A stretch of 64,000 nt of DNA from Eubacteriales bacterium. Its GTDB lineage: Bacteria > Bacillota > Clostridia > Oscillospirales > CAG-272. The notes below the pieces were generated by a model, which did not search any database, was not told where the DNA came from, and saw only the letters and a list, made by a program, of their open reading frames with translations. Positions 26,825 to 58,167 of this stretch are shown here, piece by piece. The first letter of the stretch is position 1; every line of letters starts with the position of its first letter. The stretch spans positions 1,483 to 65,482 of the forward strand of contig JAZRHO010000026.1 of the NCBI GenBank assembly GCA_045644805.1, read 5' to 3'. The position numbers were made by a program, and so were the translations under genes.

Positions 26825-29800
26825 TTAGTGCTTTGACGAGGTATGCGCGCGCTTTGCGCTTCCGCCCGTAAGTGCTATCATTTTTACAGCTGCCAAGCTA
26901 TACGAATTAGCGATAATGTTAATCGGTTTATCTATAACCCCGCGCGCAAGCACCTTGACGTATTTTGCATCTTTGGGAACTATGCCTTTCTCCTTCATAG
27001 TGTTTATATCTACCGTATCACCGGCGAGGAAGCTATTTGAAATTGTATCAACATTCACTATACAACGTTTTCGTCCGCTGGTTTTTATAACCGTAGGCGA
27101 ATCGGTAAGGAGATTTTTCGCAAGAAAATCAGGTATCAGACTGTTTGCATGCGCCTCGTCGACGGCAAGCAGAGTTTCGAGCGGCGGCTCATCCTTAATC
27201 TCGTTTTCATTCACAGTCTCGAAGCACGGCACTTTTTTTACAAATATCTTTTCTTTTACTGCCGTCGCTGCAGCAAAAACTTTTTTACGGTTTTTTACGG
27301 CAATAAAAATGCCCATAGCAAAGATGATAAAGAGCAGAAGTAATATAAGAATAAGCTGGATATTACCGCTTTGAGCTTTTGCTTTTGCGGGCAAAACTGT
27401 CACAAGATAATCAGAGTTCGCGCATTTAAGATACACGTAACCGTTATCGGTATAAAATTCTTCTCTCAGGCTGTCTCCTTCAACGATACTGCCTTCGGTA
27501 ACGGTAAAGCTATTGCCACCATCATCTATCTTGACGGTTATTTCCCTTCTTGCTATAATAAAGCTTTTTTCATTCACACCGTCTTTAAATACGTAGTTTT
27601 CCGTATCCTTAAGAATGAAGGAAACGGTATATTCACCTGCCGATAAGGCATGCGGAACGGATACGGTGTACAAAGAGCTTGGCGCAACATACGGAATATA
27701 AATGCTTCCGTTATACACGCCGGATTCAATCTGCGGTAAATCAACAACGCATTTTTCTATAATAAGCCTGCCCGATGGAATAACAGGCTCGAAATAATTT
27801 TCCGTATCATAGGAAAGAATCGCAGAAAGCTCGTATTCACCTGCATCCTTTGCGCTGTTCAGAATATAAGAGGAAACGCTTACGCCATCAGGCAATCCGC
27901 CGAGATAGGAGAATTTATATTCACCATCATAAATGAAAGATGCTTCGGACCAACAAACTGCGCTCATATCATATTGCGCGAGAGCGACGTCAATTTCGGC
28001 GCTTGTTTCAAATCCACCCGCGCTCAGATGTATTATCCTATCATTTGCCTTTAGGCATTCACCGTTTTCATATCTTATTGATATGTTTTCAAAATCTATA
28101 TAGCTTATGCTTTCGTCGTTATTTACGTAGTAAGCGCAGATATCATCGGATGTGATTTCGTTCATTGCCGTCAAGTTTTCGGACAGTATATTTACGACAA
28201 GTCTTATGGGACTTATCTTTACAACGTTAAACGTAAGAACCTTGCAAGAAATACCGAGATAATTCTGACCCTCGGGCACGTATGCCATCATATAATAGGT
28301 GCCCGCTTCTGTTGCGGATATGGGGTTTTTAAGCTCGGAATCGGAAAAATAGAAATAAACTGCTTCTCCGTATAAGGACTCTCCCAAAGGAGCCGGCAAA
28401 CCGCCCTCGTAATAATCTGAAATCTGAGGCTCGCTTATCCAATGGTTAGGCGCTTTTTCAATTACAAACGCCATTTGCGGATTAATTATTCTGTAATTCA
28501 GATCAGATGATGATGCGAGCGCAACATATTCTCCCGCATTTTTCGCACTTCCCGTAACGGTAACCGGGCACTCCTCGCAGAGCGCATTGGGTATATGATC
28601 CTGACCGTTATAGGTAAAGACAAGATTTTCCCATACAGCAATAACTCCTTTAGGCAAAATCTTAACGTAAACGCTCATATCAGCGGGAACAACATAATTT
28701 TTACTGTCCGTACCAAAGCTTATAACAACTTCTACACTTCCCTCAGCAACATAAGTCACTCCTTGTGAAAAGCTGTAAAAAGGAACGCTTCCGTCAAGAC
28801 CTATAGGCAAGACTCCGTACGATGACGGAAAATGTGCTTGTCCGTCAAAGGTATATTCGCTGTCCGAAAAACCAAATGATGACCAGTCATATTCTATTGG
28901 AGTAATTTTCCAAGTGTGAGTTATAGGATTTGGCGCGTTGTAATTCTTAGTATCATAAATGATAGTTACCGATGTAGTATATTCACCTACGTCGGTAAAT
29001 GATGAATCCGCGTATCCTACAAGTGTTACGTTTTTCGGTAGTCCGTAAATTTGCACGGACTGGACCTCTCCGTTATAAGGCAGACTGTCGGCGCTCCAAT
29101 ATACGTCTTTTAAATCAAGCTCCGCTTTCAAAATTTCAAAATCAACGGTTGGATTTATAAGCGTATAGTTCTTATCTGTGAAAATTGCGGACGCTGTATA
29201 TTTGCCAGCGTCAGTAGCACCTCCGCTTACCGCAACAGATATTAAAAGTCCCTCTGCGCTCACAAGTTCAGCCGTGGGAATTTTAGGCGCTCCGTCATAC
29301 GTAAAGCTTAGGTTTTTATAATTTACGTAAACGGGCAAGGGTTTAATGGTAAGCGTCGCGCTAACGGAATCGGGTAAATTATAATTTACACTCTCCGTAA
29401 AAAATGAAATCGTGACCGTGTAAGTTCCTACATCTATGCCACCTCCGGAAACAGTATATTCGAGCTTTATTCCGTCAAGCCCGACAATATCTGCGCTTGC
29501 GTCTATTGTATGTCTTTTACCGTTATACGTTGATACCTTATCCTCAAATACCAGAGATGATATATCATAATCCGCTGCTCGCACAGTCACGGCAATCGGC
29601 ACCGAAGCATCACCTACACGAATAATAGCACAGCTATCGCAAACACGGAATGAATCTGCCGTTTTATATTCTATCTCAACAATGTCAGTATCGATTTTTT
29701 CACACCTTCCGCTATTGTAAGTGACCGAAAATTCAGCGCCCTCAAGCGAAAGAGTTTCAAAGGCTTGATATTCGGTCTTGTCGGGATATTTATCAACCAT

Positions 29801-31672: not shown

Positions 31673-31718
31673 TTTTTTACTCCTTGCTTTTGGAAATAAA
31701 TTCCACTTTTTATATAAA

Positions 31719-31747
31719 ATTATATCCGCAAAATTCTCAAAACTCAA
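31719..31747 (-). promoter_or_regulatory. Sigma-A promoter candidate for the giant surface protein gene
   Basis: Minus strand: TTGAGT (31747-31742), 17 nt, TATAAT (31724-31719). Confidence 0.5.
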
Positions 31748-41429: not shown

Positions 41430-41446
41430 TATTTTTGACAAATATA

Positions 41447-41490
41447 AAAACCGAGTTCAAAATTCGAACTCGGTTTTCTTTTTATTTTTA
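41447..41490. terminator. Bidirectional terminator between the aro operon and the ABC operon
   Basis: aaaaccgagttc (41447-41458) / gaactcggtttt (41466-41477) is a 12-bp perfect stem with a 7-nt loop, followed by ctttttattttt. Confidence 0.8.
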
Positions 41491-41492
41491 TC

Positions 41493-42542
41493 TTAGCCTA
41501 CAAGACCTGAACGTTCAATACCTTGAACAAGATATTTCTGACAGAACAGATATAAAACAATCAACGGAGCGATAATAAGCATACCCGCGGTATTTTGAAT
41601 AACGTTCCTGTAAAGAGACCAACCGGCAAATTTGTCATACTGACTCAGTGTACGAGGCGGTGACAGATAAACGTCCGGCATAAGATAGAACTCTGAGCCT
41701 TTCGTCCAGAACATTCCCGTATAGAACTCATCAGTCCACTGCCATGAGAACGAGAAGAGGAATACTGTTATCATCATGGGAATTGAGAGAGGAAGGATTA
41801 TCTGGAAGAAGGTACGGAATACACCTGAACCGTCAACATAGGCTGACTCTTCAAGCTCATCGGGAACGCCCTTAAAGAACTGCCTCATAAGATAGATATA
41901 AAGACCGTTCTTAAAAGCAAGACCGCATATCGACAATATGATAAGAGGCCACATTGTATCCACAAGCTCTAAGGAATCACCAAAGATCAATGCAATCGGT
42001 CCCTTATATCCCCATGCTTGAACCGTCAGAATATCGAAGTTAACGAAGTGATCCTGGAAGGCAAGCTTCAAGGTTCTGTGAGGAATAATCATAGAAATGA
42101 CAACTACTATCATTATAAGCGAATTACCCTTGAACTTAAACTTTGCAAGTCCGTAGCCTATAAGGCAGGCAACGAGAGTTTGAATGAGCGCGCAAAGCAA
42201 CGAAAGAAGCGCGGTGTTCCAAAGAGCCTCAAAGTAATGGTTTTCGATTATAATATACTTGTAAGTGTCAAGTGTAAAATGCTTAGGAATAAGCGATACA
42301 GTTGCATCGATAACATCTTCCTTTGTCATGAATGAACCTGCAATTCTTGCAAAGAAAGGATAAAGAATTACGTAAGAAACACCAAGCATCATAATAAATC
42401 TGAAGATGTTTATGATAACTGTGATCCATGTATGCGAGGACTTAAGCTTACTTAGCATTCTTTCTTTCAAGGAGAGCTTACCTTCGTAGTCAACATGTAT
42501 TGAATTTTTGGTTTCTTTTACTGTATAAGCATTGTTTTCCAT
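41493..42542 (-). CDS. Carbohydrate ABC transporter permease (MalG/LplC-like), pair 2
   Basis: Six-TM profile and the EAA-loop variant EESAYVDGSGVFRTFFQIILPL. GGAGG RBS. Confidence 0.88.
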   Translation of the reverse strand: MENNAYTVKETKNSIHVDYEGKLSLKERMLSKLKSSHTWITVIINIFRFIMMLGVSYVILYPFFARIAGSFMTKEDVIDATVSLIPKHFTLDTYKYIIIENHYFEALWNTALLSLLCALIQTLVACLIGYGLAKFKFKGNSLIMIVVVISMIIPHRTLKLAFQDHFVNFDILTVQAWGYKGPIALIFGDSLELVDTMWPLIILSICGLAFKNGLYIYLMRQFFKGVPDELEESAYVDGSGVFRTFFQIILPLSIPMMITVFLFSFSWQWTDEFYTGMFWTKGSEFYLMPDVYLSPPRTLSQYDKFAGWSLYRNVIQNTAGMLIIAPLIVLYLFCQKYLVQGIERSGLVG

Positions 42543-42556
42543 GTTAATCTACCTCC

Positions 42557-43558
42557 TTAATCTCTTCTTTGATAGAATATAAACGTAGAAGCAATTGCCG
42601 CAACCGCTGCTATGATAAGCATAATGATCACGAAATATATCCATGACATTGCCGTAGCGCTATACGGATCTGCTCCATATGCGGTATTGATATACTTTAT
42701 CATAATATTCTGCGAACGTGTAAACGCGTCGATTATCGTATAAACAGTGTTTACAAGTATCATGGGCGAGATCATCGGGAAGGTTACCTTCCAGAAGGTT
42801 TCCCATCCTGTTGCACCGTCTATACGGCATGCTTCGTAAATCGACGGAGATATCGACTGAAGTCCTGCAAGGAATATCAACATCTGAACACCGGAGTAGT
42901 TTATGATGTTATAAACGTTGTTAACAAGATCAACAACGTATGCAACAAGCTCTCCGCCAACCTGCATATTCGCAAACAGCTTTTCTACGTCAAGAGTTGA
43001 TATGATCTGACTTGTGGTGTTTGAGCCTGAACCGTCATCAATACCATCCTGCGAAACGCCTGACATAATATCACCTGCGTTAATTGTTTCCATAATACCT
43101 GTTGAAACAATAACGGGAAGGAAGAATATTGCACGGAATGCCGCGCGACCAAGCATTTTCTGGTTAAGAACTACCGCTATAAACAGCGAGAATATTATAA
43201 CCGCAGGAACTTCAAATATAAGCTGCTGAATACCTGCAACAAGATTTGTTACAAATGTAGAGTTATTTGTAAATGCTTCAATATAATACTTAAATCCTAT
43301 AAATTCATACGTTGTCGGATTGGTCTTATATATCGGCTTACTCATACTGAACCATATTGAGTCAAGCAGAATAGGAAGATAGATAAAGAGCACTCCAATG
43401 ATAAAAGGAAGAACAAAGGCATATCCTGCACGAGCTTTTCTTGCATCAAGCGAAACCTTTTTGCGAGGCTTGAGAAGACCGTCATTGCCAAGCTCGCCTG
43501 AATCTATAACGGGAGCTGAAACACCGAGTCCTTCAGATGCATTAATATTTTCACTCAT
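42557..43558 (-). CDS. Sugar ABC transporter permease (MalF/LplB-like), pair 2
   Basis: EAA loop YEACRIDGATGWETFWKVTFPMISP. The start ATG overlaps the upstream stop as TAATG. Confidence 0.88.
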   Translation of the reverse strand: MSENINASEGLGVSAPVIDSGELGNDGLLKPRKKVSLDARKARAGYAFVLPFIIGVLFIYLPILLDSIWFSMSKPIYKTNPTTYEFIGFKYYIEAFTNNSTFVTNLVAGIQQLIFEVPAVIIFSLFIAVVLNQKMLGRAAFRAIFFLPVIVSTGIMETINAGDIMSGVSQDGIDDGSGSNTTSQIISTLDVEKLFANMQVGGELVAYVVDLVNNVYNIINYSGVQMLIFLAGLQSISPSIYEACRIDGATGWETFWKVTFPMISPMILVNTVYTIIDAFTRSQNIMIKYINTAYGADPYSATAMSWIYFVIIMLIIAAVAAIASTFIFYQRRD

Positions 43559-46500
43559 TACTCATTACCTCCTTCTGCTTTTATAGTTTGATACTCATAT
43601 TTGCCAAGAGTATAAATTTTTCCTCCAAGGTTAACGTCTACCGAGTAAATATTGTAGTTAAGTATGAACATTGTTCCGTCGGAATAGGTTACAAGCACTA
43701 TATTACCGATATCGCTTGTATAGTTAGTGTACTTGTAATCACTGCTGTCATCTGTTGCAAAAGAGTCGGTAACAAATGAATATTCGGATTCATAGCTGAT
43801 AGCATCAATAGTGACTGCCTTCTCATTAACTCCACCGTTTCCGTTATATTCATTTTCATATTTAGCTGCGACTTCGTCAAGGGATACACGTAGTAGCTCC
43901 CAGATTTCATCGGGGAGATTTATTCTCTGAGCCGTTTCATCATAAACGCAGTTAATTTCCTGAGCAAACCATTTAAGAAGCTTTTCGGTGTCAACGTTCA
44001 CCTTAAGCGCGCATCCCCATTGCTCTGAGGACTGCTTAAGTGCTTCATACTCATCGTGAACACGAGCGGAAATCAAAGCATCAAGCTCTTCAACGAATTC
44101 AGCTATAAGAAGTTTATAGTTCTCTTCCCATTCGGCAACTTCTATAACACGCTCGCCCTTAATAATTCTATGATCTGTTATCTTGCATTTCTGAAGACCG
44201 CCGATAGCACTGTTCAGCTCGCTATACGTAATAAGGATATTATCATGCCATGTGCTGTAATCTACTCCGTAGTATTCACTAAGGAGCTCGTCTTCCTTCA
44301 TGTGTCCTATATTGTCACTCTGGAAAGCAAGTATATAGTAGAGCGATGCGCCAGATTCGATAGCACGAAGTATATCGTAAGCTGTTGTACCTGAATAGTT
44401 TATCGGAGTTCCTGTATAATTTACAGAGCCGTGAAGTACCATGCCTACAAACGGAACAGTATAAGATGAGTATGCAAGATGGCTCGAATCAATATTTGCA
44501 TTGAGAATATGATCTGCATATTTAAGTGAGTAAGCATTTCCCTTATCAAGCATAATATCAAGGTTATCTGTGCCTGACATTTTTTCAAGAACAGCAGTTA
44601 CATAACCTTCAGCCTCATCGCGGTTGACAGGCTGCTTTTTATCAAAGTTAGAGTTCAAATCAGAACCGAGAGTAGATACCGAAATAGCACTGATTTCATA
44701 TTTCGAGTACTTCTTGATGAATTTAGAGTAAAGCTCCTCAAATGATTCCGGATTTACAACAAGTGAATAAAAGCTTTCATATTCCTGAAGAACGGAATTG
44801 TAAGATTGCTTCGATGCATAACGGTTATCAACCATTCGCGAAACATTGCCTTTAATTCTGATACCGTCGGATGCCGAGGTATTGTTTATGTATGAAAAAT
44901 CGAAATCGGGATATATGCCGAAGTTTGAGCCTTCTTTAGCGGATACAGATTCCGCCGTTTCAAGAAGGTTTCTAAGGCCCTTCTTTCCGCCACAGGCTCT
45001 GCTCCACTTGATCTTTGTGGGATAGGTGGAATAAAGACCGCCGTTAGCAAAACCGGTAAGACGGAAATTAATGTTGGTTATATTCTGTATCTGCGAAACA
45101 AGATCTCTGCAATCTTGAGCGGCAGCAGCATACTGAAGCTTTTCGTATTCTTCAGTTGACTCCGCGGCAAGCTTATCATACTCAGCAGCCTTCGCGGTAT
45201 ATATCTCTACTGCGCCCGAAAGCTCTTCATAGATAGTAGCTATATCCTCAAACTTTGTAAGAGGAATAGAAGTTTCTACAGGGAATGTAAGAATTTTCTT
45301 AACGATATCCATTGCTCCGAGAACTTCTATATAGAGAGGCATATCATCTGTTACCGTTTCAAGAGCGGAAAGCGTACCGTTTGCGTAAAGATAATCGCGG
45401 TAGTAGTTTACCATACCCATATAAGAAGAAACGTATCCCGATTTAACAGTATTATCAACCTTCTCATCTGTAAGCATAGCGTATCTTGTTACGTAAGATC
45501 CGTTATATTTCGATTCGGAAACTATTTTGTAAGAAACAGCACCTCCGACAGAAACTGTCTCGGAGAGGTCGTACTCATCAGCAGGGTAAGGAGTGTATGA
45601 GCAATATACATGACCAAATCTGTAAGTCAAACCGCCCATCACGAATTCGAGATTTGCAAGAGATGCTCCCTCTTCGATTATAGCGAAGTAACCGTTGGTT
45701 ACTCTTTCAACGCCGTATGCAAGTGATGTGCTGGCGTTCGCATCATCCTCGGTAACAAGACCGAAGACAGGCATTGTTATCTGCTCTCTATGCTCGCCCG
45801 TTATATTGGAATAACAGTAATCTGTTCCGTATACGGTTGCAGTAACGTGAGGCCTGCTTGATGCAAAATCCTCAAACTCCGAAACAGCTCCGCTTCCGTC
45901 AGGATAGAAGATGTATCCCTCCTCATTAAGATCGCCAGCACCAAAGTAAGGAAGCACAGAAACCGAATCAAGCGTATATACGGTTTCATCAAATGAAATC
46001 GAGCTTGCGGGAAGACGAACGCAGAGGCTTCCATCGCTATTGAAGCTATATTCAAGTGAACATGTGAAAACAGGCTTTTGCTGAGTTTTATCAACATATC
46101 CAAGCTCTTCCTCATCCTCAAGCATTTCTGACAAGGTATATGAGCCGCAATATTTACGGAAAAGATTCGATGCCTGACTCTTAACCGCATTGTCTTCTAT
46201 CTTTCTAAGCTCATAAACAGGTATGCCATAAACATCACTGGAAGTTTTAAGCGTGTAGTACGCCATTATTGTATTAATGTCCGTATGCAAAGCGCTGATG
46301 GCTTTATATCCTGCCGAGTTTTCAGGCAATTTCGAATATACGGTTTTCATTGCTGAGAGATATTTTCTCATGCCTGAGATGTAAAGATATCCATCCTTGT
46401 AGAGCTGAGAACTATATTCTTCATACTCAAACGGATTATATTCGCCGTTATAATCCGCACCGGCACAATGCTCTTCCATAAGAGAGCAGAGCTCCTGAAG

Positions 46501-47091
46501 CATCGGAACAAGTATCATTTCTTCGTACTTCTCTGCTTTAAGCACTCCGGGGAGAAGATATCTAACCGTAGTATCGCCGAGAGTGTAGTTTACTCTTATA
46601 CCGCTGCTTATGTATTCGGTAGTGATTTGACCGCGCTCAGCAGCCCACTCTGATGAACTGTAAACATTGGGCGTACTCGTTGCAATAACAGAGAAATTAA
46701 TATTAAGCTGGCTTAACAGTTCTCTGTTTGTCTTCTCTGAGTTAGCGGTATAATACCATGGATTACTTGTAAGTATCTGACCTGTAACTCTGTTTTGATA
46801 ATAAAGAACTCCTGTATATGCATTTACATATATAGCATATTTTCCATCAGCGGATACGAGAGGTCTCAAATATCCAAGAGAATTTTCGTATATCAGCATT
46901 TCTTCCGCTGTTTTGAAGTTATACGTGGTATATACCTCAGTTACATACGCGGAAACATCATCAGGTGAATTCAAAGAATTCTCTGTGTTTGCGATATATG
47001 CCGCATCAGCTTTAGTTGGAAACAGCACGAAAATGGAGCTGAACACCATAACGAGAGCTAAAGCAGACGATAATATTTTATTAAGTTTCAT
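43558..47091 (-). CDS. 1177-aa secreted protein of unknown function (possibly a DUF5696-type exoprotein)
   Basis: SPase-I type signal peptide (MKLNKILSSALALVMVFSSIFVLFPTKADA/AY) and a GGAGG RBS. I see no catalytic or binding motif by eye. The family name is a recollection, not a search result. Confidence 0.8.
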   Translation of the reverse strand: MKLNKILSSALALVMVFSSIFVLFPTKADAAYIANTENSLNSPDDVSAYVTEVYTTYNFKTAEEMLIYENSLGYLRPLVSADGKYAIYVNAYTGVLYYQNRVTGQILTSNPWYYTANSEKTNRELLSQLNINFSVIATSTPNVYSSSEWAAERGQITTEYISSGIRVNYTLGDTTVRYLLPGVLKAEKYEEMILVPMLQELCSLMEEHCAGADYNGEYNPFEYEEYSSQLYKDGYLYISGMRKYLSAMKTVYSKLPENSAGYKAISALHTDINTIMAYYTLKTSSDVYGIPVYELRKIEDNAVKSQASNLFRKYCGSYTLSEMLEDEEELGYVDKTQQKPVFTCSLEYSFNSDGSLCVRLPASSISFDETVYTLDSVSVLPYFGAGDLNEEGYIFYPDGSGAVSEFEDFASSRPHVTATVYGTDYCYSNITGEHREQITMPVFGLVTEDDANASTSLAYGVERVTNGYFAIIEEGASLANLEFVMGGLTYRFGHVYCSYTPYPADEYDLSETVSVGGAVSYKIVSESKYNGSYVTRYAMLTDEKVDNTVKSGYVSSYMGMVNYYRDYLYANGTLSALETVTDDMPLYIEVLGAMDIVKKILTFPVETSIPLTKFEDIATIYEELSGAVEIYTAKAAEYDKLAAESTEEYEKLQYAAAAQDCRDLVSQIQNITNINFRLTGFANGGLYSTYPTKIKWSRACGGKKGLRNLLETAESVSAKEGSNFGIYPDFDFSYINNTSASDGIRIKGNVSRMVDNRYASKQSYNSVLQEYESFYSLVVNPESFEELYSKFIKKYSKYEISAISVSTLGSDLNSNFDKKQPVNRDEAEGYVTAVLEKMSGTDNLDIMLDKGNAYSLKYADHILNANIDSSHLAYSSYTVPFVGMVLHGSVNYTGTPINYSGTTAYDILRAIESGASLYYILAFQSDNIGHMKEDELLSEYYGVDYSTWHDNILITYSELNSAIGGLQKCKITDHRIIKGERVIEVAEWEENYKLLIAEFVEELDALISARVHDEYEALKQSSEQWGCALKVNVDTEKLLKWFAQEINCVYDETAQRINLPDEIWELLRVSLDEVAAKYENEYNGNGGVNEKAVTIDAISYESEYSFVTDSFATDDSSDYKYTNYTSDIGNIVLVTYSDGTMFILNYNIYSVDVNLGGKIYTLGKYEYQTIKAEGGNE

Positions 47092-47108
47092 TCTATTTAC
47101 CTCCTGCT

Positions 47109-49271
47109 CTAAGCTCGGTTTGCGATTTCTGTTATTATGGACATTACGAACATTACCATCTTAGCAAGAAGGCTTGAGAACAGTATTGCAACGAACATAA
47201 TTACTACCATCGCAACTATTGTACAAATAACGATAAGAAGGTTCTTTGAAAGTGCGTAATCGTGAATTACGAGAGTTCCGAAGAACAGAAGGAATGCAAC
47301 CCAGATATAACCAAACGTTACAAGAAGGTTAACCATAGAGCCTTCGGAAGCTGTAAGAACATTCGTAAGAACCGTAGAAATAATTACAAGAAGAGGAAGG
47401 GGCGTGAGAGAATACGTAGTAGCAATGAAGATATCCTTAAAGCTTCCTTCACCTTCAAAGAGCGTTGTCAAACACCAGTTGCCTACACACCAAAGGAGTA
47501 CGGGAACACAAATAGCAGCTACCTGAACAAAAATGGTAATGTAGTTATCTCTGGGATTGAAGATATATCCGCGACCTACGGACTGATAGAAGAACGCGAT
47601 TATTGTTACTGCCATAATTGTCAGACCGCCTCTTACAGAGCCACGCTTTTCATGCTTAAGATCCCAGAATCCGTCAAACGGATGCATCCATACATGGAAT
47701 GCGTAAAGAAGCTCTTCAAGATAAGTCTTCTTTCCGACCTTAAGAGATACTGCTTTGTTCTTCTTCTTTGCCCAACCAAGGAATTTAACAAATCCTACGA
47801 CAAGAGCAATCACAAGAATGATAATGGGAATGAGCCATCCTTTGCCAAGGAAATCTTTACGGGTTTCCGCAAATGCCTCGGAATACTGCTCGGTTTCATA
47901 TGCCATAGACAGCATTTCCATAGCGCCTTCATAATCACCTTGGCTGTAAAGAGCTTTACCGATACCGATATAAGCTAAGTCAAAGTTGTTGTTCTTTGTA
48001 AGAACTGCCTGCCAATAGGTTATAGACTCACTGTATTTATGCTCGTTCTGGTTGCGAAGAGCTGCCATGATAGTATCACAATACTCTGTTGGTGAATATA
48101 CCGTAATACGATATCCTAGAGTTGAATTATCAAGAGCAAGAAGGTAATTCGTACCGTCAACATAATGATATGTGATGGCAACCATATTAAAGCCCTGACC
48201 AAGCTGGCTACCTACGTTACTGAACTTACCGCCGTCGCCAAATGCAAACAGAAGGTTACCGTTCTGGTCATAGGTGAATATACGGGAACGGTGATTATCA
48301 AGAATAGACCATGAGCCCTCTTGACCGACAGCAACGACGACAATGCTTGAAACACCTGCATTGCTTCCGTTGACCGCAACCTCTCCGCCCGGATCAAAGA
48401 ATCCGTTACGCTTCATTATCTCATCGCCTGCAGAGTTAAGCTTTTTAACAGGCGAATACGTAGCAGACTTTGATTTAATAGCAGCAGCTTGCTTCAATTG
48501 GTCAAGCTTATTGTTCGTTATATAAACGAAACCGTCTTCATCAATGGTGATATTGTTATAAGAAACAGAAACGTTAGATGCCTGGCTGGCTCTTTGCTCC
48601 GGACTTTGGAATCTTCTCCAAATCATCTGAATAATAGAGTACGTAGCGCGCTGAGCACCGATAAATCCTGTAAAGTCACCGTCGCTTGACATTACGATAA
48701 CGCCTTCATAACAAGACTTAGATACTACGAAAATTCTTCCGTATTGGTCTACAGCTATCGAAGTAGGTGAAAACGCCTCCGACGAAAGAAGAGCAGACTC
48801 AGGTTTGTTAAGCGTCTTTACATAAGAGTATCCGTTCACTCTGTCAAATACTACGATTCTTGAGTTACCCGTATCGCATACGTAAACGAGGCCGTCTCTT
48901 GCAAATACGCCTTGAGGAGCAGACAATTTCTGTTCTCTGCCATATTCATCGACGTATTTGTCAATAGTAGCGATATAGGAGTAATACTTGTTAAGCACAA
49001 CTATTCTGTTATTTGCTGTATCCGCTATGTAAACATTGGAAACTTCATCAGTCTCTAAGTCGGATACTTCATTACCAAGGGATACTTTAAGACCCATATC
49101 GTTAGAATCTACAACGATATTGGGATCATAGGCGGTAGGCGACATAAGAGGCTCACCGTCTATTGAATAGGTATACGTATCATAAGCACTGTATGCCGAG
49201 GAATAAACGGTTCCGAAGAGCATCACGAGTACCAATGAAAGAATCAAAATCTTTGCAATTTTACTTTTCAT
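47109..49271 (-). CDS. Signal peptide - NHL-repeat beta-propeller - TPR - Yip1-type polytopic membrane domain fusion protein
   Basis: NHL-like blades (ADTANNRIVVLNK, CDTGNSRIVVFDR, IAVDQYGRIFVV, DEDGFVYITNN, HRSRIFTYDQNGNLLFAFG). TPR-like YIGIGKALYSQGDYEGAMEMLSMAY. Then about 6 TM helices with a Yip1-like pattern. Confidence 0.8.
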   Translation of the reverse strand: MKSKIAKILILSLVLVMLFGTVYSSAYSAYDTYTYSIDGEPLMSPTAYDPNIVVDSNDMGLKVSLGNEVSDLETDEVSNVYIADTANNRIVVLNKYYSYIATIDKYVDEYGREQKLSAPQGVFARDGLVYVCDTGNSRIVVFDRVNGYSYVKTLNKPESALLSSEAFSPTSIAVDQYGRIFVVSKSCYEGVIVMSSDGDFTGFIGAQRATYSIIQMIWRRFQSPEQRASQASNVSVSYNNITIDEDGFVYITNNKLDQLKQAAAIKSKSATYSPVKKLNSAGDEIMKRNGFFDPGGEVAVNGSNAGVSSIVVVAVGQEGSWSILDNHRSRIFTYDQNGNLLFAFGDGGKFSNVGSQLGQGFNMVAITYHYVDGTNYLLALDNSTLGYRITVYSPTEYCDTIMAALRNQNEHKYSESITYWQAVLTKNNNFDLAYIGIGKALYSQGDYEGAMEMLSMAYETEQYSEAFAETRKDFLGKGWLIPIIILVIALVVGFVKFLGWAKKKNKAVSLKVGKKTYLEELLYAFHVWMHPFDGFWDLKHEKRGSVRGGLTIMAVTIIAFFYQSVGRGYIFNPRDNYITIFVQVAAICVPVLLWCVGNWCLTTLFEGEGSFKDIFIATTYSLTPLPLLVIISTVLTNVLTASEGSMVNLLVTFGYIWVAFLLFFGTLVIHDYALSKNLLIVICTIVAMVVIMFVAILFSSLLAKMVMFVMSIITEIANRA

Positions 49272-49281
49272 TTTGCCCTCC

Positions 49282-50157
49282 TTAATCCTTCATACCCGAA
49301 GATCCCATCGTTTCGATAATCTGGCTCTGGTTAAGCACGAATACCAAAATAGGAACGAGCATCATAACAACCGTAGATGCAGCGCCTGCACCTGAACGTG
49401 CAATACCACCCGAAAGAATCTGAGAAATCGCGTAGTTGAAGGTTTTTAATTCCTCTGAATGAATGTAAATGGATGAGCCTGTGTTCCAAAGGTTCTTGAA
49501 GCACTCAATAATAAGAGTCAACCATGCGGGTTTAACCATGGGCATTGCGATAATCAAATAAGTTCTGAACTCGCTTGCTCCGTCAAGACGCGCAGACTCA
49601 AGAACAGTATCAGGAACCGATGTCTCCATAAACTGCTTCATAAGGTAAAGACCTATCGTCGTTGCCATAGACGGAACTATAATAGCAAGATAGGAATCTA
49701 TCCAACCGAATGCGGAAAGAATGATGAAGTGCGTTACCTGGTTAACTGTGGAGTGGAACATAAGAGATGCAACTATGATTTTGAATATGGCATTTCTTCC
49801 GGGGAAACGAAGCTTAGCCAATGAATAAGCAGCCATAGATGCAAATATAAGGTTACCTACAGTACCGCAAAGAGTGATGAACACAGTGTTGAAAATATAT
49901 CTTGAGAACGGTACCCAAGAGTCACCCATGAGTGTAAACAAATCTGAGAAGTTCTCAAGAGTCGGCTTCATAACGTAAAACTTAGGTGGGAACATGAAGA
50001 GCTCATCGAGAGGCTTCAAGGATTGAACTATAACGTAGTACATGGGCAGGAACATGAACAGACCGAAAATCGTAAGCAATATGGTTATACCCACATCGCC
50101 TCCGGCTGAACGGTTTAAAACGACTCGGTGGCCTCTGGTTCTTAATTTTTTCGCCAT
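49282..50157 (-). CDS. Carbohydrate ABC transporter permease (MalG-like), pair 1
   Basis: EAA loop LESARLDGASEFRTYLIIAMPMVKP. The ATG at 50157 (TGAtATG with the upstream stop) is preferred; the GTG at 50166 is an alternative. Confidence 0.88.
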   Translation of the reverse strand: MAKKLRTRGHRVVLNRSAGGDVGITILLTIFGLFMFLPMYYVIVQSLKPLDELFMFPPKFYVMKPTLENFSDLFTLMGDSWVPFSRYIFNTVFITLCGTVGNLIFASMAAYSLAKLRFPGRNAIFKIIVASLMFHSTVNQVTHFIILSAFGWIDSYLAIIVPSMATTIGLYLMKQFMETSVPDTVLESARLDGASEFRTYLIIAMPMVKPAWLTLIIECFKNLWNTGSSIYIHSEELKTFNYAISQILSGGIARSGAGAASTVVMMLVPILVFVLNQSQIIETMGSSGMKD

Positions 50158-50158
50158 A

Positions 50159-51109
50159 TCACTCACCTACCTTCGAAAGGGCCTTCTTAATAATGTTATT
50201 TGAAGCGTACATTATTACAAATAAGACCACGGCTATTGCGGAAGCATAACCTATTTCATAACGCGCACCGCCATAGTCATCAAGATGGTGCATTATTGTA
50301 TGCGCTGCATAGTCGACCGACGGGAATCCGCAAAGTGCGGTAACTACCGATCCGAAGACGAAAGAGTTGGTAATAGCAAGAACCGCACCGAACATCATCT
50401 GAGGACGCATGGTAGGAAGGGTTATGTACCAAAGCTCCTGCCAACGGTTTTTGATACCGTCAACCGCAGCCGCTTCGTAAAGAGAACGGTCAATAGTCTG
50501 GAATCCTGCTATGAAGGACAGGAACGCAGTACCAAGAGACGTCCAAAGAGCAACTACTATACAAAGAGGCATTACGTAATCCGCATCCTCAAACCACAAC
50601 ACAGCCTCGGATATAATTCCAAGGTCAATAAGAGTTGCGTTTACCCAACCGTACGAGTCGGACGAGAAGAGCGTCTTCCATATAAGGTATACGTTACCTG
50701 ATATCGAAGGAGCATAGAATATAAGAGTTACTACAGCACGAAGCTTGGGGGGAAGCTCGTTTATGAACCACGCGATAAGCAGCGAAAGAAGGTATGATAC
50801 AGGACCTGTTATTGCCGCGAATATCAACGTGTTCTGACAAGCGAGAAGGAATATATCGTCATCAAAGAATAGACGGGTAAAGTTGTCGATTCCCACAAGA
50901 TGGGGCATCTGCAACATGTTAAAGTCCGTAAAACTCAAAATCATCGAAAGGAAAACCGGAAGAATGGTAAAGATGATGAACAAAAGGAAGAACGGTGCAA
51001 GCATGAAATATGCCGTCTTATTGTTTTTCATCTCTTCCCAGGTCCAACGGAGCTTCGACACTTCAGAGCGTTTTACAGGACGAGTTGTCTCTGCATTAGT
51101 CTGTGACAT
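50159..51109 (-). CDS. Sugar ABC transporter permease (MalF-like), pair 1
   Basis: EAA loop YEAAAVDGIKNRWQELWYITLPTMRP. AAGGAG RBS. Confidence 0.88.
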   Translation of the reverse strand: MSQTNAETTRPVKRSEVSKLRWTWEEMKNNKTAYFMLAPFFLLFIIFTILPVFLSMILSFTDFNMLQMPHLVGIDNFTRLFFDDDIFLLACQNTLIFAAITGPVSYLLSLLIAWFINELPPKLRAVVTLIFYAPSISGNVYLIWKTLFSSDSYGWVNATLIDLGIISEAVLWFEDADYVMPLCIVVALWTSLGTAFLSFIAGFQTIDRSLYEAAAVDGIKNRWQELWYITLPTMRPQMMFGAVLAITNSFVFGSVVTALCGFPSVDYAAHTIMHHLDDYGGARYEIGYASAIAVVLFVIMYASNNIIKKALSKVGE

Positions 51110-51144
51110 TTATGTATCTCCTTATAAAATCTCGAATTATTACA

Positions 51145-54100
51145 CTATTCAATCGGTAAAGGATCGCCGATCTCAAGATTAAACTCAAGTCTCTTGCGCT
51201 CAATCTCGGCATTAATATCGTCGATGTATCCCGTCATAGCGTCAATCGGATCCGCACCGTCGTTTACAACGTCAAGGAATGCAAACTTGGTATATCTGCC
51301 TATAATATAAGATCCGGGGTAGTTAACTATGGAAGAAAGAGAACTCATCTGCTCCATGATAGCCGCCTTTTCGCTCGCGGTCCATGAAAGGTCGTTAAGA
51401 GCCTTAAGGTTAGCAGATTCATACTTAGCCGAAGGTCCGATTAGCGCAACCATTCTGTTACCGTACTCGGACTGAACCTTTGCACTGGTTTCCCACTGCA
51501 TAAACTGCCATGCGGCAAGTACGTCATCACAACCGTGAAGCATTACCGTTGCTCCGATACCTGCAAGAGAGTCATAGTTGAATATCTTGTTGCCTTCAGC
51601 ATCAAGCTTGTAATTACCGTCGGAGTCAAGCACGTAGCTTCCGGGAAGCGAGGTAAACTCCCAAAGACCGGATATTTCGGTAGCATATACAACAAGCTGG
51701 TTGTATATTCCTGCATAATCACCGATAATTATGGGCATTTCACCCGTTCTGAAACGGTTAGCCGCATCATAGCTTACAGGGAATGAATAGTCACTGTACA
51801 AACGGCAGACATAGTCAAATGCCTCAAGAGCAATCGTTGAATCAAGGTCTACCTTTGATCCGGCATAGTCTTCATTATCGGTATATTTCCACATGTTACC
51901 GCCCTTCTGATAAATCATAAAGTCGATAGCGGAGATATAGTTTACACCAATAGACATATTGTTTGACTGAAGCACAGGCAGAAGAGAAAGGAGCTCATCC
52001 CATGATTCGGGAACCTCTTCTCCAAGCTCCGCAAGAACGTCCATACGATAGAACATCATAGCAAAGCTCATAGTCTGCGGAATACCGTACGTAGTTCCGA
52101 GAAGTCTTATGGTATCCATAGCTGCCGGTGCGAAATTATCCGCGATTACATCTTCAAAGGAGTTGGATACGAACGAGAGTCCGTCTTCACCCTTATATTC
52201 TGTTGTAGGCTCAAGATAATTTCCGTCAGCGTCTTTATATGTATAATAAGTGGAAGAAAAAATTTCGTTGTATTTACTGTATTTGCTGTCCTCGGAGTAA
52301 GTACCGCTTACACCCATAACAGCGTCTCTTATAGCATAATTGATTACGTCCGAAGCACCAAGTCCCATATAAACGTCAGGACCCTTGCCCGAAAGAATTG
52401 AGGGAAGAAGCGTTCCGCCCGTTACCAGCTTTAATGTTACCGCAACACCTGTGGAGCTGGTAAAGCTTCCGTCAGCGTCGATAAGAGAACGCCAGATCTG
52501 AGACTGATCGCGTCCTGTAGCGAGCCATACGTCTACACTCTTTGTGGTTTCGTCAGGCTTTTCCTCAAGACCCATCAAGTCGTAGTCAACTATGAAGGAA
52601 TAGAAGAAGGAGCTTATTTCAAATCCTACTGACTTAAAGAAGCCTGCTTTTGCTCTTGGAATATCCTTTTCATTCGAGTCCGATGCGCAAATGTAAATAG
52701 AGTCCACGAGCATTGAGCTTGTCTTGGAATTATTTATCCACGTACCGAGAGTACCGAGATAAGACTTAAGTGTTGACATATTTGCCGCGATATAAATACC
52801 TTCGTCTGATCCCATCTTATCAAGAAGAATCGCTATTGTTTCAAGCGTTGCGGTATGAGAGCCCGCGCCTTCGCTGCAAAGGCTGTCAAGCTCATCCTTA
52901 ACCTTCATAAGCTCTTTAGCCTGCAAAAGAAGCTCGTAAAGAACCTCAGGCATTATTCCGCGGAAATCATAATCACGGTATTCATCGGGATCGTTACCCG
53001 TAAGCTGGAGTATCTTAAGGTAACAATCGTTTATCTTGTTCATTGAGTTCTCGACTCTCTGAATAAGCTCTTTAAGGCTTCCGAGAGAGCACTCGAGATA
53101 AATCGTATACTCTTCTCCTTCCTCGAAGTAGAACTCAAATGCATCGTGATTTGCATCGGTAATATAAGTAGACTGCCAATTCTTGTCGTATTTGAATTCG
53201 GCACTGTACGCATCCTTGAACGGAACCACCGGAGAATCTCCGTAATCTCCGCCCGAAAGCTTAATCGTACGGCAAACGTACATACCCTGAAGAGCCGTCT
53301 GCTTGTATCTCATGCCTATCTTGTAGAAGCCGGACTGATTTACCGTGAAATTGTACGCAGCCCACTGTCCTACGGTATTATAGCTGTTCTCGCCTATTAC
53401 GTTGTAAAGCTGAGATTTTGAAATGGAGGGATAAGTTTCTGCCGATGAGTTATCATTCGTAGCATAAACAGAGGAGTCTGATACGTAATCAGGGAATTCA
53501 GCCTCAATTCTGATAGGAGCTACATCTTCCTTCGATACGGAAGTATCACCGTATTTTGCTTTTGCATCGGCAATGTACTGCTCATAGGATTTGAGCGCCG
53601 TCAAATCGGAATTGCTTACCGGAACAAGCTCCACAGACGCAATTATCATAGGCTCTCTTATTGCTTCAAGGGTAATTGTACGAGTACCGTTGAGCATATA
53701 GAAACAGAAGTAGCTGTGATAATCTTCGCCGATCTGATAGCCGGTATAATAACCTGTGTTATCCTGGCAATAATATGTGTTCCACTCCGGAACCTGAACT
53801 GCTTCCGGTGCCATCGAGTTACCGTTGATATCCTGCTTTATTCTGTGCTTTGTAACCGTTTTCTTTCCGTCCTTAACGACGGTAACAATTTTATATGAGC
53901 CGGCTTCCTCGCCATCCTTTTCTTTACCTGTGGCAATATGCTCATACTTCACGTCGTAAGAATCAGGCTCTCCGGGAACGTCAGTAGTATCAACGCTTAC
54001 TACATCATTGTATTCCCATGCCTTTGTAAACTCAAGGCTTCCTGCCTCGGAGAAAGGAAGCGTGCCGTCGATGAGAAGCTTTCTCTCGATTGAGCTTATA

Positions 54101-54564
54101 CTGCTCTCGGCGGTATCGCAGCTATAATAAACAATTTTGATGTAGTAAAGACCCACATCTTCCTCATCCAGAGTTACGGTCCATGTAGCCTTTCCGGATG
54201 CAGATATGTAAAGAGCGTTAGCTTTAACACTATCGTCAGCCTCGTTATAGGCCTTCCATGCCTCTCCGTTAAGTTCACACAGAGAGCTGTCCTTAACGTA
54301 TTCAACACCTGTTGTGTAATCCTTGTTCCACACGATGTCTAACGTATGGACCTTGGATCCCTTCCCTGCATCAGCATAGTCAGCGATATAATCCGCATAA
54401 GTAGTCGCTCCTACAAGAGACTCCATCTCTTCAAGAGTAGCAGCTGTACTATCAGGCTTTAGCTTTTCGCCATTCGCCGCAAATACGGAGACCGCAACTG
54501 CGCTGAACAAGGTTGCAACAGAAAGAACGAAGCATATCGCTTTCTGAAACAGTGACTTCTTCAT
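51145..54564 (-). CDS. Giant (1139 aa) extracellular solute-binding protein with two N-terminal CBM-like beta-sandwich modules
   Basis: SPase-I signal peptide without a lipobox. CBM6/35-like segments (ATWTVTLDEEDVGLYYIKIVYY; IRIEAEF...VGQWAAYNFTVNQSGFYKIGMRYK). The C-terminal ~500 aa have the SBP family-1 pattern (VDVWLATGRDQ..., PDVYMGLG, YGIPQT). Confidence 0.85.
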   Translation of the reverse strand: MKKSLFQKAICFVLSVATLFSAVAVSVFAANGEKLKPDSTAATLEEMESLVGATTYADYIADYADAGKGSKVHTLDIVWNKDYTTGVEYVKDSSLCELNGEAWKAYNEADDSVKANALYISASGKATWTVTLDEEDVGLYYIKIVYYSCDTAESSISSIERKLLIDGTLPFSEAGSLEFTKAWEYNDVVSVDTTDVPGEPDSYDVKYEHIATGKEKDGEEAGSYKIVTVVKDGKKTVTKHRIKQDINGNSMAPEAVQVPEWNTYYCQDNTGYYTGYQIGEDYHSYFCFYMLNGTRTITLEAIREPMIIASVELVPVSNSDLTALKSYEQYIADAKAKYGDTSVSKEDVAPIRIEAEFPDYVSDSSVYATNDNSSAETYPSISKSQLYNVIGENSYNTVGQWAAYNFTVNQSGFYKIGMRYKQTALQGMYVCRTIKLSGGDYGDSPVVPFKDAYSAEFKYDKNWQSTYITDANHDAFEFYFEEGEEYTIYLECSLGSLKELIQRVENSMNKINDCYLKILQLTGNDPDEYRDYDFRGIMPEVLYELLLQAKELMKVKDELDSLCSEGAGSHTATLETIAILLDKMGSDEGIYIAANMSTLKSYLGTLGTWINNSKTSSMLVDSIYICASDSNEKDIPRAKAGFFKSVGFEISSFFYSFIVDYDLMGLEEKPDETTKSVDVWLATGRDQSQIWRSLIDADGSFTSSTGVAVTLKLVTGGTLLPSILSGKGPDVYMGLGASDVINYAIRDAVMGVSGTYSEDSKYSKYNEIFSSTYYTYKDADGNYLEPTTEYKGEDGLSFVSNSFEDVIADNFAPAAMDTIRLLGTTYGIPQTMSFAMMFYRMDVLAELGEEVPESWDELLSLLPVLQSNNMSIGVNYISAIDFMIYQKGGNMWKYTDNEDYAGSKVDLDSTIALEAFDYVCRLYSDYSFPVSYDAANRFRTGEMPIIIGDYAGIYNQLVVYATEISGLWEFTSLPGSYVLDSDGNYKLDAEGNKIFNYDSLAGIGATVMLHGCDDVLAAWQFMQWETSAKVQSEYGNRMVALIGPSAKYESANLKALNDLSWTASEKAAIMEQMSSLSSIVNYPGSYIIGRYTKFAFLDVVNDGADPIDAMTGYIDDINAEIERKRLEFNLEIGDPLPIE

Positions 54565-54595
54565 GAAATAATTTCCTCCAAGAAATTTTTATTTC

Positions 54596-54620
54596 GCCCG
54601 CAACAGAACGCAATGCGGGC
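54596..54620 (-). promoter_or_regulatory. 5'-UTR stem-loop of the ABC operon transcript
   Basis: gcccgca / tgcgggc is a 7-bp GC-rich stem with an 11-nt loop. It sits about 8-32 nt downstream of the predicted TSS and 25 nt upstream of the SD. Confidence 0.5.
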
Positions 54621-54634
54621 TTTTGATAACACAG

Positions 54635-54663
54635 ATTATAGCATATTAATTTAAAAATGTCAA
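54635..54663 (-). promoter_or_regulatory. Perfect-consensus sigma-A promoter of the seven-gene ABC operon
   Basis: Minus strand: TTGACA (54663-54658), exactly 17 nt, TATAAT (54640-54635). Confidence 0.75.
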
Positions 54664-57186: not shown

Positions 57187-58167
57187 TTATTCGGAAACCG
57201 TCGCAGCCTTTGAAGCCGCCTTTGACAAATTGCCTGCGTAAATAGTACATCCGGCAGTCTGAACATCTTCAACGGCATATCCGTAGTTAGCGCCTGACGA
57301 TACTGTAAGCGCTGCGATTTCATCTGCGGTCTTGCCTTCGCATGCATTGTCGAACGCATCAACCTGAGCATACCACTCGGTCTTGCCTATCGAGCTCATG
57401 CCATAAGAATTCCCCTGTTCTCTCTTTGTCTTATACTCGGAATCGTTTCCTTCAACAGCACCGTCAGAGGTAACTTCAAGCTCAACCACGGCTTCATCTG
57501 TAAGACAAGCAGAAACCTTATCTCCGTTCATAACAGCCGCCGTAACAGTTGCCGTGAAGCTTGCCGAACCGTTTGTATCACCGTCGGCATCGGTTTCAGA
57601 GGAAGAAACCGCAACACCGAGATTAACGTCGGTATCCGAAAGCTTTACGGATTTGGTATTGGAAAACGCTTTTTCAATCGCATGTACGAAATCGGAAACG
57701 TAGATTGTACATCCTGCATTAATTACTTCTTCCGTTCCTCTATAGTCGGAAGCTACAAGTGCCTTTATTTCATTAAGATTCTTACCTACAGTAACAGAAG
57801 CAAACGAATCAGCCTGCTCATTCCACTCGTTTTTACCTGCGGCAGACATTCCGTAATCGCTACCGAGTGCTTGCTTTGTGGTCATTGCTTTAGAGATCGT
57901 ACAAACACCTGCTGAAGTAACCTGAACGTCACCGTAGTATGATGAATCAAGCTCACAGTCAACTATCTTTCCGTCCGAATCAATAACAACAGCGGCAAAA
58001 GTATAAGTCACCGATGCTACACCGTCGGTATTACCATCCGCGTTTTCAACGTTCGCGCCGGTATAAATTCCAACACCTATTTCATAATCCTTTTCTCCGC
58101 AGGACACAAGTCCGAGAGAACAAACAAACAGTGCAGCTATGCACAAAAGGGTGATAATTTTTTTCAT
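57187..58167 (-). CDS. Lipoprotein with two tandem divergent FMN-bind-like modules (PplA-like architecture)
   Basis: Lipobox GLVSC. Two ~150-aa repeats each contain DGK(I)V.C.LD, YGMS..GK.EW..Q.D.F and end in (N/T)AGCTIY, where canonical FMN_bind domains carry D.(V/I)SGAT.(T/S). Adjacent to apbE. Confidence 0.7.
   Translation of the reverse strand: MKKIITLLCIAALFVCSLGLVSCGEKDYEIGVGIYTGANVENADGNTDGVASVTYTFAAVVIDSDGKIVDCELDSSYYGDVQVTSAGVCTISKAMTTKQALGSDYGMSAAGKNEWNEQADSFASVTVGKNLNEIKALVASDYRGTEEVINAGCTIYVSDFVHAIEKAFSNTKSVKLSDTDVNLGVAVSSSETDADGDTNGSASFTATVTAAVMNGDKVSACLTDEAVVELEVTSDGAVEGNDSEYKTKREQGNSYGMSSIGKTEWYAQVDAFDNACEGKTADEIAALTVSSGANYGYAVEDVQTAGCTIYAGNLSKAASKAATVSE

Follow-up and report, generated by a model that had tools for sequence, protein, structure and literature searches.

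A conserved Bacillota cassette that joins two ABC permease pairs to a giant solute-binding protein, a Yip1-anchored propeller and a DUF5696 protein of predicted glycosidase-like fold

Firmicutes dominate the breakdown of fibre in guts and rumens, and their uptake of glycans is far less understood than that of the Bacteroidetes by Sus systems. We describe a seven-gene operon in a stretch of 64,000 nucleotides (the window) from Eubacteriales bacterium, a member of the Clostridia (assembly GCA_045644805.1, contig JAZRHO010000026.1). The operon encodes a giant solute-binding protein (SBP), two permease pairs of the ATP-binding cassette (ABC) type (P1a and P1b, P2a and P2b), a membrane protein with NHL, TPR and Yip1 domains, and a secreted protein of the family DUF5696. 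Judged by homology and gene order, it represents a cassette of seven to eight genes whose conservation extends across Bacillota. Our favoured reading, which we hold with modest confidence, is that the operon specifies a machine for the surface capture, cleavage and import of long oligosaccharides, energised in trans.

The closest described transporters are the CUT1 importers that share an ATPase (MsmX, MsmK or UgpC), among them AraNPQ-MsmX of Bacillus subtilis and the transporters of the Gram-positive polysaccharide utilisation loci (gpPULs) of Roseburia and Eubacterium. The likeness lies in the MalF/MalG-type pairs of transmembrane domains (TMDs) with their EAA motifs, in a MalE-like SBP domain and in an ATPase presumably encoded elsewhere; the cassettes of relatives are, in addition, embedded among glycoside hydrolases (GHs) and regulators of the LacI or histidine kinase/response regulator type. 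Unlike those importers, the cassette has two TMD pairs locked together, a non-lipidated primary SBP of about 1100 aa with some 640 aa of extra modules, and an obligatory Yip1-anchored propeller and DUF5696 protein, and in the window lineage it has a single SBP and no regulator.

Three further systems offer partial parallels. The predicted fold of the DUF5696 protein resembles most closely that of GH129 and GH129-like enzymes (the alpha-N-acetylgalactosaminidase NagBb, 5WZP, and the 3,6-anhydro-D-galactosidase DagB of Zobellia, 5OPQ and 8RZK), followed by GH101 and GH31. It has the same three predicted domains and invariant Asp residues in the N-terminal domain, as DagB has Asp202. It differs in that no sequence similarity is detectable, in its much greater size, to which helical insertions belong, in its extracellular location and in the position of its gene within an operon for transporters. 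YknW of B. subtilis is a Yip1-family membrane protein and an accessory subunit of the ABC transporter YknXYZ; YknWXYZ is an exporter-type, MacB-like system. As there, the genes of an ABC transporter are coupled to that of a bacterial Yip1 membrane protein, whereas here the Yip1 domain carries an NHL/TPR ectodomain of 450 aa and accompanies type I importers. The Sus-like utilisomes of Bacteroidota (SusCD with surface glycan-binding proteins and a GH) are an analogy only: binder, surface enzyme and transporter form a fixed module that is reused with different GHs for different glycans. Their proteins are unrelated and their envelope architecture is different. The components of the present cassette are of known kinds (type I ABC importers, a GH-like fold) and their conserved combination is uncharacterised. 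A literature search found no paper on DUF5696, PF18952 or this gene cluster, in agreement with an earlier note on this DNA, which knew of no experimental work on such neighbourhoods.

Gene order of the operon and its recurrence in Bacillota

The seven open reading frames (ORFs) of the operon are co-directional on the minus strand, span 41493-54564 and are separated by gaps of -1 to 35 nt. P1a and P1b meet in TGA-t-ATG at 50161-50155, the stop codon of the DUF5696 gene overlaps the start codon of P2a in TAATG at 43558, and the remaining junctions are gaps of 10-35 nt. By its overlap, P2a is predicted to be translationally coupled to the DUF5696 gene. The ORF of P1b extends over 49282-50166 (294 aa from a GTG); the ATG at 50157, which gives 291 aa, is more likely its true start, because the homologs are 291 aa long. 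The promoter ahead of the SBP gene is the sole sigma-70 match in the region to score 12/12, and neither its hexamers nor the TG of its extended -10 element changes across nine species. As the promoter is an invariant consensus, constitutive high expression is suggested for the window lineage, as befits a core nutrient-acquisition system. The leader hairpin, whose 8-bp helix is retained in nine species with some two-sided changes (RNAalifold), may lend stability to the mRNA at its 5' end or regulate translation. The ribosome-binding site of the operon sits inside a conserved palindrome, AATTTCTTGGAGGAAATT. A scan of the operon gave no convincing internal terminator, the hits being weak and devoid of T-tails. 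No CcpA cre consensus was present in the promoter or leader (the three hits in the window are within chance) and no riboswitch in the leader, the Rfam scan of the window having returned one tRNA only. The single tight operon that the earlier note had described was confirmed in its coordinates, junctions, promoter and terminator.

The recurrence of this arrangement was analysed with one genome per GTDB species, gene order being read from tblastn searches of 83 loci with the window's seven proteins. There were 426 pattern matches in the species genomes, a relative being encoded in 387 of them, within a single uncultured gut lineage, and the best 80 matches all came from metagenome-assembled genomes (MAGs) of uncultured gut or rumen Clostridia. 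Every sufficiently long locus among the 83 has the order SBP, P1a, P1b, NHL-Yip1, DUF5696, P2a, P2b, and it is unchanged where the DUF5696 protein is a variant of 934 or of 2300 aa. Gene order kept to this extent far exceeds chance. The flanks of these loci are variable and of a housekeeping nature (MnmA, NifU, IscS, Liv and shikimate genes). One locus, L041 (CAVEOF010000005.1), is labelled Coriobacteriaceae and has cassette identities to the window about equal to those of the Clostridia loci L040 and L081; its contig has probably been placed in the wrong bin or given the wrong label.

The same cassette, verified by Pfam, was found in Butyrivibrio fibrisolvens D1 and Paenibacillus cellulosilyticus by tblastn against annotated plasmids and chromids, and through homologs of the Butyrivibrio protein the cassette was also traced to P. 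alkalitolerans, a Roseburia MAG, Cohnella nanjingensis and Acetatifactor. These relatives are 43-58% identical to the window in P1a and P1b and 23-28% in the DUF5696 protein. The earlier note had stated that neighbourhoods of Yip1, DUF5696 and permease genes recur in Clostridia and Paenibacillus, and had staked its reading on gene order being conserved outside this genome; the 83 MAG loci together with the six cultured-type cassettes bear out both. The cultured-type cassettes stand beside LacI or histidine kinase/response regulator genes, and their partner GHs are GH113 and GH2 (P. alkalitolerans), GH26 (Cohnella), two GH53 (Roseburia) and GH43 (Butyrivibrio and Acetatifactor). No signal peptide is present in the small partner GHs, which would thus be cytoplasmic endo- or exo-enzymes and must act on imported oligosaccharides. 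Transporter, carbohydrate-active enzyme and regulator, the features of a gpPUL, occur together in the Butyrivibrio, Roseburia, Acetatifactor, Paenibacillus and Cohnella cassettes. In the window only the transporter and a GH-fold candidate are present, with neither a regulator nor a classified GH.

The cassettes also differ in their complement of SBPs. The MAG lineage has one SBP for two TMD pairs, which the earlier note had taken as a property of the system. It is lineage-specific: five of the six cultured-type cassettes are adjoined by one or two ordinary lipoprotein SBPs. A linked regulator, partner GHs and a second SBP were either lost from the window lineage or never present in it. What is conserved throughout, and unusual, is the pair of locked translocators, the obligatory giant unanchored SBP, Yip1-anchored propeller and GH-fold protein, and the reuse of the whole beside enzymes for different glycans.

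The two translocators and their ATPase

All four permeases matched Pfam BPD_transp_1 and NCBIfam models of the MalF/MalG or UgpA/UgpE type, and an EAA or EAA-like coupling-helix motif, at which an ABC ATPase docks, is intact in each of the four (Table 1). The two pairs are only distantly related to each other, with 25% identity between P1a and P2a and 23% between P1b and P2b. In the cassettes of all six relatives P1 and P2 form separate orthogroups at fixed positions. By these comparisons they are old paralogs, distinct in all cassettes, and a recent duplication of one transporter, which we considered, was rejected on the same grounds.

Across the related loci the median identity is 85% for P1a and 87% for P1b, 66% for P2a, 68% for P2b, 60% for the NHL-Yip1 protein, 57% for the SBP and 44% for the DUF5696 protein; at the same loci it is 78% for DAHP synthase, 61% for chorismate synthase and 57% for EPSP synthase. 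At the level of sequence P1a and P1b are thus more constrained than the neighbouring biosynthetic enzymes. For sugar permeases this degree of constraint is unusual, and it suggests that they have many interaction surfaces. Taken over loci L001-L091, P1a and P1b are 80-95% identical where the shikimate enzymes are 55-80% identical, and about 55% identical to those of Paenibacillaceae.

The earlier note had stated that the locus encodes no ATPase, no classified GH and no regulator, which is correct; there is no ABC ATPase signature anywhere in the 64-kb window. Its further claim that the locus, for want of an ATPase, departs from the type I importer model does not stand. Unlinked, shared ATPases of the MsmX/MalK type are the rule for the CUT1 sugar importers of Firmicutes (PMC7658222), and because such ATPases are shared, their absence from the operon is ordinary for an importer of this kind. 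The EAA motifs of all four permeases agree with this, as does the cassette of P. cellulosilyticus, which has directly upstream a ugpC gene for a MalK-type ATPase (ABC_tran, OB_MalK and TOBE_2 domains).

The accessory proteins and the surroundings of the operon

The domain assignments of the earlier note (DUF5696, NHL/TPR/Yip1, two MalF/MalG-type pairs and an SBP with a large N-terminal extension) were upheld by the hidden Markov model searches. The 1177-aa protein, in which the same note had seen no assignable motif, gave a strong match to DUF5696 (PF18952; E = 6.5e-127 and 425 bits, the gathering threshold being 25.6). Its AlphaFold2 (AF2) model, built on 52 homologs (pLDDT 83, pTM 0.77), consists of an N-terminal beta-sandwich, a (beta/alpha)8 barrel at about residues 557-1010 and a C-terminal beta-sandwich. 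The top match in the Protein Data Bank (PDB) by Foldseek was the GH129-like DagB (5OPQ/8RZK; for 5OPQ, E = 1.3e-21 and TM 0.70), and lower ranks were held by NagBb of GH129 (5WZP, 6e-16), GH31 (5e-9), GH101 (1e-8), GH36 and GH66. We are confident, as far as a predicted structure allows, that the DUF5696 protein shares the three-domain fold of the retaining alpha-glycosidases of GH129, GH101 and GH31. The "missing" hydrolase of the operon is, on this model, probably the DUF5696 protein, and the earlier claim that the operon has none is unsafe.

Conservation within the family is concentrated at few positions. D398 and D424, which lie in the beta-sandwich within PDGSG...YGxD motifs, and E912 are conserved at 100%, in 174 members and then in 72 more distant ones. 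For R824, N852, H887, N898, K932 and H974 conservation is at least 94% across distant members (more than 240 sequences, down to 23% identity). The catalytic pair of NagBb is D435/E478. DagB, built of a beta-sandwich, a TIM barrel and an Ig-like domain, needs D486 and E517 of the barrel together with D202 of the N-terminal domain (PMC5698469). The essential role of D202 in catalysis provides a precedent for D398 and D424 in the beta-sandwich of DUF5696.

The family is abundant and variable in size. The DUF5696 protein has 528 word-indexed homologs, and an exhaustive search gave about 3,750 clusters at 50% identity. Within the same cassette the DUF5696 proteins range from 757 to 2300 aa (L084 8271-11075; L085 10001-16903; proteins P0288-P0384). 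The long forms have an insert of more than 1000 aa, without a Pfam match, between the barrel and the conserved C-terminal beta-sandwich, and a Pfam scan of 21 long variants (1.6-2.3 kaa) found no extra domains. At L085 (19129-21175), the locus of the 2300-aa form, genes for an aldose 1-epimerase and a sugar-nucleotidyltransferase lie directly downstream on the opposite strand, a weak hint at the release of hexose.

The 720-aa membrane protein has a signal peptide, an extracellular NHL/SBBP beta-propeller, TPR hairpins at about residues 405-470, a transmembrane helix at 480-498 and a Yip1 domain of five transmembrane helices at 525-695, the helices being placed by hydropathy profile. Pfam supports Yip1 (PF04893; E = 6.7e-14, residues 525-695) and NHL (E = 2.8e-8), and the sequence hits in the PDB are TPR and NHL proteins. 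In Lachnospiraceae and Paenibacillaceae the NHL and Yip1 parts are encoded, in that order, by two overlapping genes, that of Yip1 for 206 aa. At ten loci (L038, L044, L059, L060, L064, L066, L074, L078, L080 and L082) a leucine-rich repeat (LRR)-like insertion of about 270 aa follows the signal peptide of the NHL-Yip1 protein, which at L038 reaches 988 aa. An extra gene was considered for the loci with 1 kb more between P1b and NHL-Yip1 and was rejected, the additional length being this insertion in the ectodomain.

The giant SBP comprises beta-sandwiches at about residues 118-315 and 351-492, a helical bundle at 497-614 and a MalE-like SBP domain at about 673-1139. The full-length protein of 1139 aa had no Pfam hit; its C-terminal 467 aa alone matched SBP_bac_8 (E = 1.6e-13), and the model (pLDDT 77) superimposes on oligosaccharide-binding MalE-like proteins with TM of about 0.8 (Foldseek). 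The N-terminal 640 aa or so are predicted to form the two beta-sandwich modules and the helical bundle. The earlier note had called the SBP fused to carbohydrate-binding modules (CBMs). The two sandwiches of the AF2 model speak for this, as does a weak match of the profile of module 2 to the signature strand of the CBM6/35-like tandem modules of 8ZVK (E = 0.005); the Pfam scan of the N-terminal fragments gave no CBM, and the profile of module 1 no PDB hit. On the model, a CBM fusion is plausible. The signal peptide is of the A-x-A type without a lipobox, which is unusual in a Gram-positive SBP. The giant SBPs of the cassettes in general lack a lipobox, and the ordinary SBPs next to them have one. 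The window SBP is homologous to the giant SBPs of Butyrivibrio and Paenibacillus from about residue 100 to the C-terminus.

Table 1. Genes and signals of the operon, in the order of transcription (positions in the window)
Feature	Coordinates	Strand	Assignment
sigma-70 promoter	54635..54663	-	TTGACA, 17-nt spacer, extended -10 TG, TATAAT; score 12/12
GC-rich 5' leader hairpin	54596..54620	-	GCCCGCA...TGCGGGC, about 10 nt past the predicted transcription start; read from sequence
giant SBP, 1139 aa, non-lipidated	51145..54564	-	C-terminal SBP_bac_8; AF2/Foldseek
permease P1a, 316 aa	50159..51109	-	BPD_transp_1, UgpA-like (MalF/UgpA-like TMD); EAA motif EAAAVDGIKNRWQELWYITLP
permease P1b	49282..50157	-	MalG/UgpE-like TMD, BPD_transp_1; EAA-like motif ESARLDGAS
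NHL-TPR-Yip1 protein, 720 aa, putative anchor/scaffold	47109..49271	-	Pfam NHL, SBBP, TPR, Yip1
secreted DUF5696 protein, 1177 aa, candidate glycoside hydrolase	43558..47091	-	Pfam; AF2/Foldseek
permease P2a, 333 aa	42557..43558	-	MalF-like TMD with long extracellular loop; EAA-like motif EACRIDGATGWETFWKVTFP
permease P2b, 349 aa	41493..42542	-	MalG-like TMD, BPD_transp_1; EAA-like motif ESAYVDGSGVFRTFFQIILP
intrinsic terminator, bidirectional	41446..41478	-	15-bp stem, 3-nt loop, T-run; common to the convergent shikimate operon

In the window the operon is flanked on one side by the convergent shikimate operon and on the other by ZIP, ApbE and Rnf genes, and neither a regulator nor a recognisable GH flanks it. 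Between the ApbE and Rnf genes lies an ORF of 326 aa without a Pfam match (57187-58167, minus strand). Farther away, at 26825-31747 on the minus strand, an ORF of 1640 aa combines a Listeria-Bacteroides repeat (Flg_new) with a ribosomal L15/L27A-like domain at its C-terminus; at the syntenic locus L001 a gene of at least 802 aa, from 23180 onward, shares a Pfam hit with it.

Proposed capture, cleavage and import, and the rival readings

In the reading we favour, the DUF5696 protein would trim or fragment the polymer at the cell surface, and the giant SBP would grip the chain by its beta-sandwich modules and pass oligosaccharides to the P1 translocator. The NHL-TPR-Yip1 protein would tether both exoproteins, which are not themselves anchored, beside the translocators, and an unlinked, shared ATPase of the MsmX/UgpC type would power both of these. 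Long oligosaccharides are the probable cargo, given the cytoplasmic endo-glycanases that accompany related cassettes. Several observations weigh against this reading. We infer the physical association of the parts from gene order only. A MalK/MsmX-type ATPase was found neither in the 64-kb window nor within 10 kb at the 83 related loci, where only Liv-type ATPases occur; more broadly, genes for a GH, a regulator, SBP_bac_1 or a MalK-type ATPase are not a recurrent feature within 10 kb at those loci, and the window lineage is itself without a nearby partner GH, second SBP or regulator. The enzymes that the cassette partners elsewhere act on chemically different glycans (mannan, galactan, arabinan or xylan), with which one glycosidic specificity is hard to reconcile unless DUF5696 is polyspecific.

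The remaining adverse points concern catalysis. No GH Pfam hit was obtained for the DUF5696 protein, and fragments of the barrel alone gave only DUF5696 at E<=10. By sequence, the protein and the family profile returned noise only against all PDB chains, and hhalign of the family profile with the GH31 enzyme YicI of Escherichia coli gave a probability of 0.1%. No catalytic Asp/Glu pair could be mapped onto DUF5696 by sequence, and E912, the only universally conserved acidic residue of the barrel, is placed at a helix-to-strand junction and looks structural. The loop after the predicted beta-4 strand of the barrel (residues 813-817) reads S-D-(F/Y) in most of the family and S-N-F-D, with Asn815 and Asp817, in all 52 close relatives of the window protein, which may mean that a functional Asp has shifted or been lost in the window clade. 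The earlier note had named a match to a known GH/PL family with intact catalytic residues as an outcome that would overturn its view of the operon; the first half of this is borne out by the GH129/GH101/GH31-like model, and for the second half no pair could be mapped by sequence.

These observations are also the case for regarding the DUF5696 protein as a non-catalytic derivative of the GH fold, a pseudo-enzyme or lectin that serves P2 as capture or gating partner, with depolymerisation left to enzymes encoded elsewhere. Such a partnership with the second permease pair was the proposal of the earlier note, which had considered the NHL-Yip1 protein for it as well. To the missing universal acid pair in the barrel, the Asn815 of the window clade where most of the family has Asp, the missing sequence link to GH families and the company of unrelated glycan types can be added that the stop codon of the DUF5696 gene overlaps the start of P2a and that the window lineage has no second SBP. 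We nevertheless regard this as somewhat unlikely. D398 and D424 are wholly invariant in their Gly-rich PDGSG and YGxD motifs, and with the conserved N852, H887, N898 and H974 they look like an active or metal site. At the variable loop an Asp is kept at position 815 or 817 in at least 93% of sequences; among 174 sequences the pairs at these positions are ND in 74, DD in 70 and DN in 13. The lipoprotein SBPs of the cultured relatives, moreover, mean that P2 needs no surrogate binder.

A housekeeping role in the MAG lineage, namely the recycling of the cell's own envelope glycopolymers or the uptake of one ubiquitous host or microbial glycan rather than the inducible use of dietary polysaccharides, would sit well with the perfect-consensus, invariant promoter, with housekeeping flanks that hold no regulator or partner GH within 10 kb at the 83 loci, with P1a and P1b outranking the DAHP, chorismate and EPSP synthases in conservation, and with the presence of relatives in most of the species-genome matches. 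We consider it improbable all the same. In cultured Bacillota the cassettes lie in regulated loci with GHs for plant glycans, the fold of the SBP is that of oligosaccharide importers, and a constitutive promoter is compatible with a dietary substrate. That the operon consists of two independent, ordinary sugar importers placed by chance beside two unrelated exoprotein genes is effectively refuted by conservation. Each permease pair taken alone is indeed a standard MalFG-type pair, but the genes follow one and the same order from Clostridia to Bacilli, at protein identities of 23-58%, the orthogroups of P1 and P2 are fixed, the junctions overlap or are very short, and a single promoter and a single terminator enclose the whole.

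The anomalies of ATPase, hydrolase and stoichiometry are largely explained. A bolder form of the favoured reading is possible, and we advance it tentatively, as something short of probable: the cassette would be a new Gram-positive "utilisome", in which a Yip1-anchored propeller serves as scaffold for the non-lipidated giant SBP and an enzymatic DUF5696 protein above two ABC translocators, for the "selfish" uptake of long oligosaccharides. DUF5696 would then found a GH family of its own, with GH129 and GH101 as distant relatives, and the module would be reused across Bacillota for different plant or host glycans and serve as a constitutive core system in a large clade of uncultured gut Clostridia. 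Given that no sequence link joins DUF5696 to GH families, the family, if active, would be a new one, and it is a candidate for that status if the protein is an enzyme. Some hosts of the cassette are in culture and accessible to genetic work (Paenibacillus cellulosilyticus, P. alkalitolerans, Cohnella nanjingensis and Butyrivibrio fibrisolvens D1), and there the neighbouring GHs suggest substrates. If the parts of the cassette form a complex, they would constitute a new architecture of ABC importer, in which two translocators are combined with a giant binding protein that has no anchor and with a Yip1 scaffold, and such a complex might explain how Gram-positive bacteria import long oligosaccharides.

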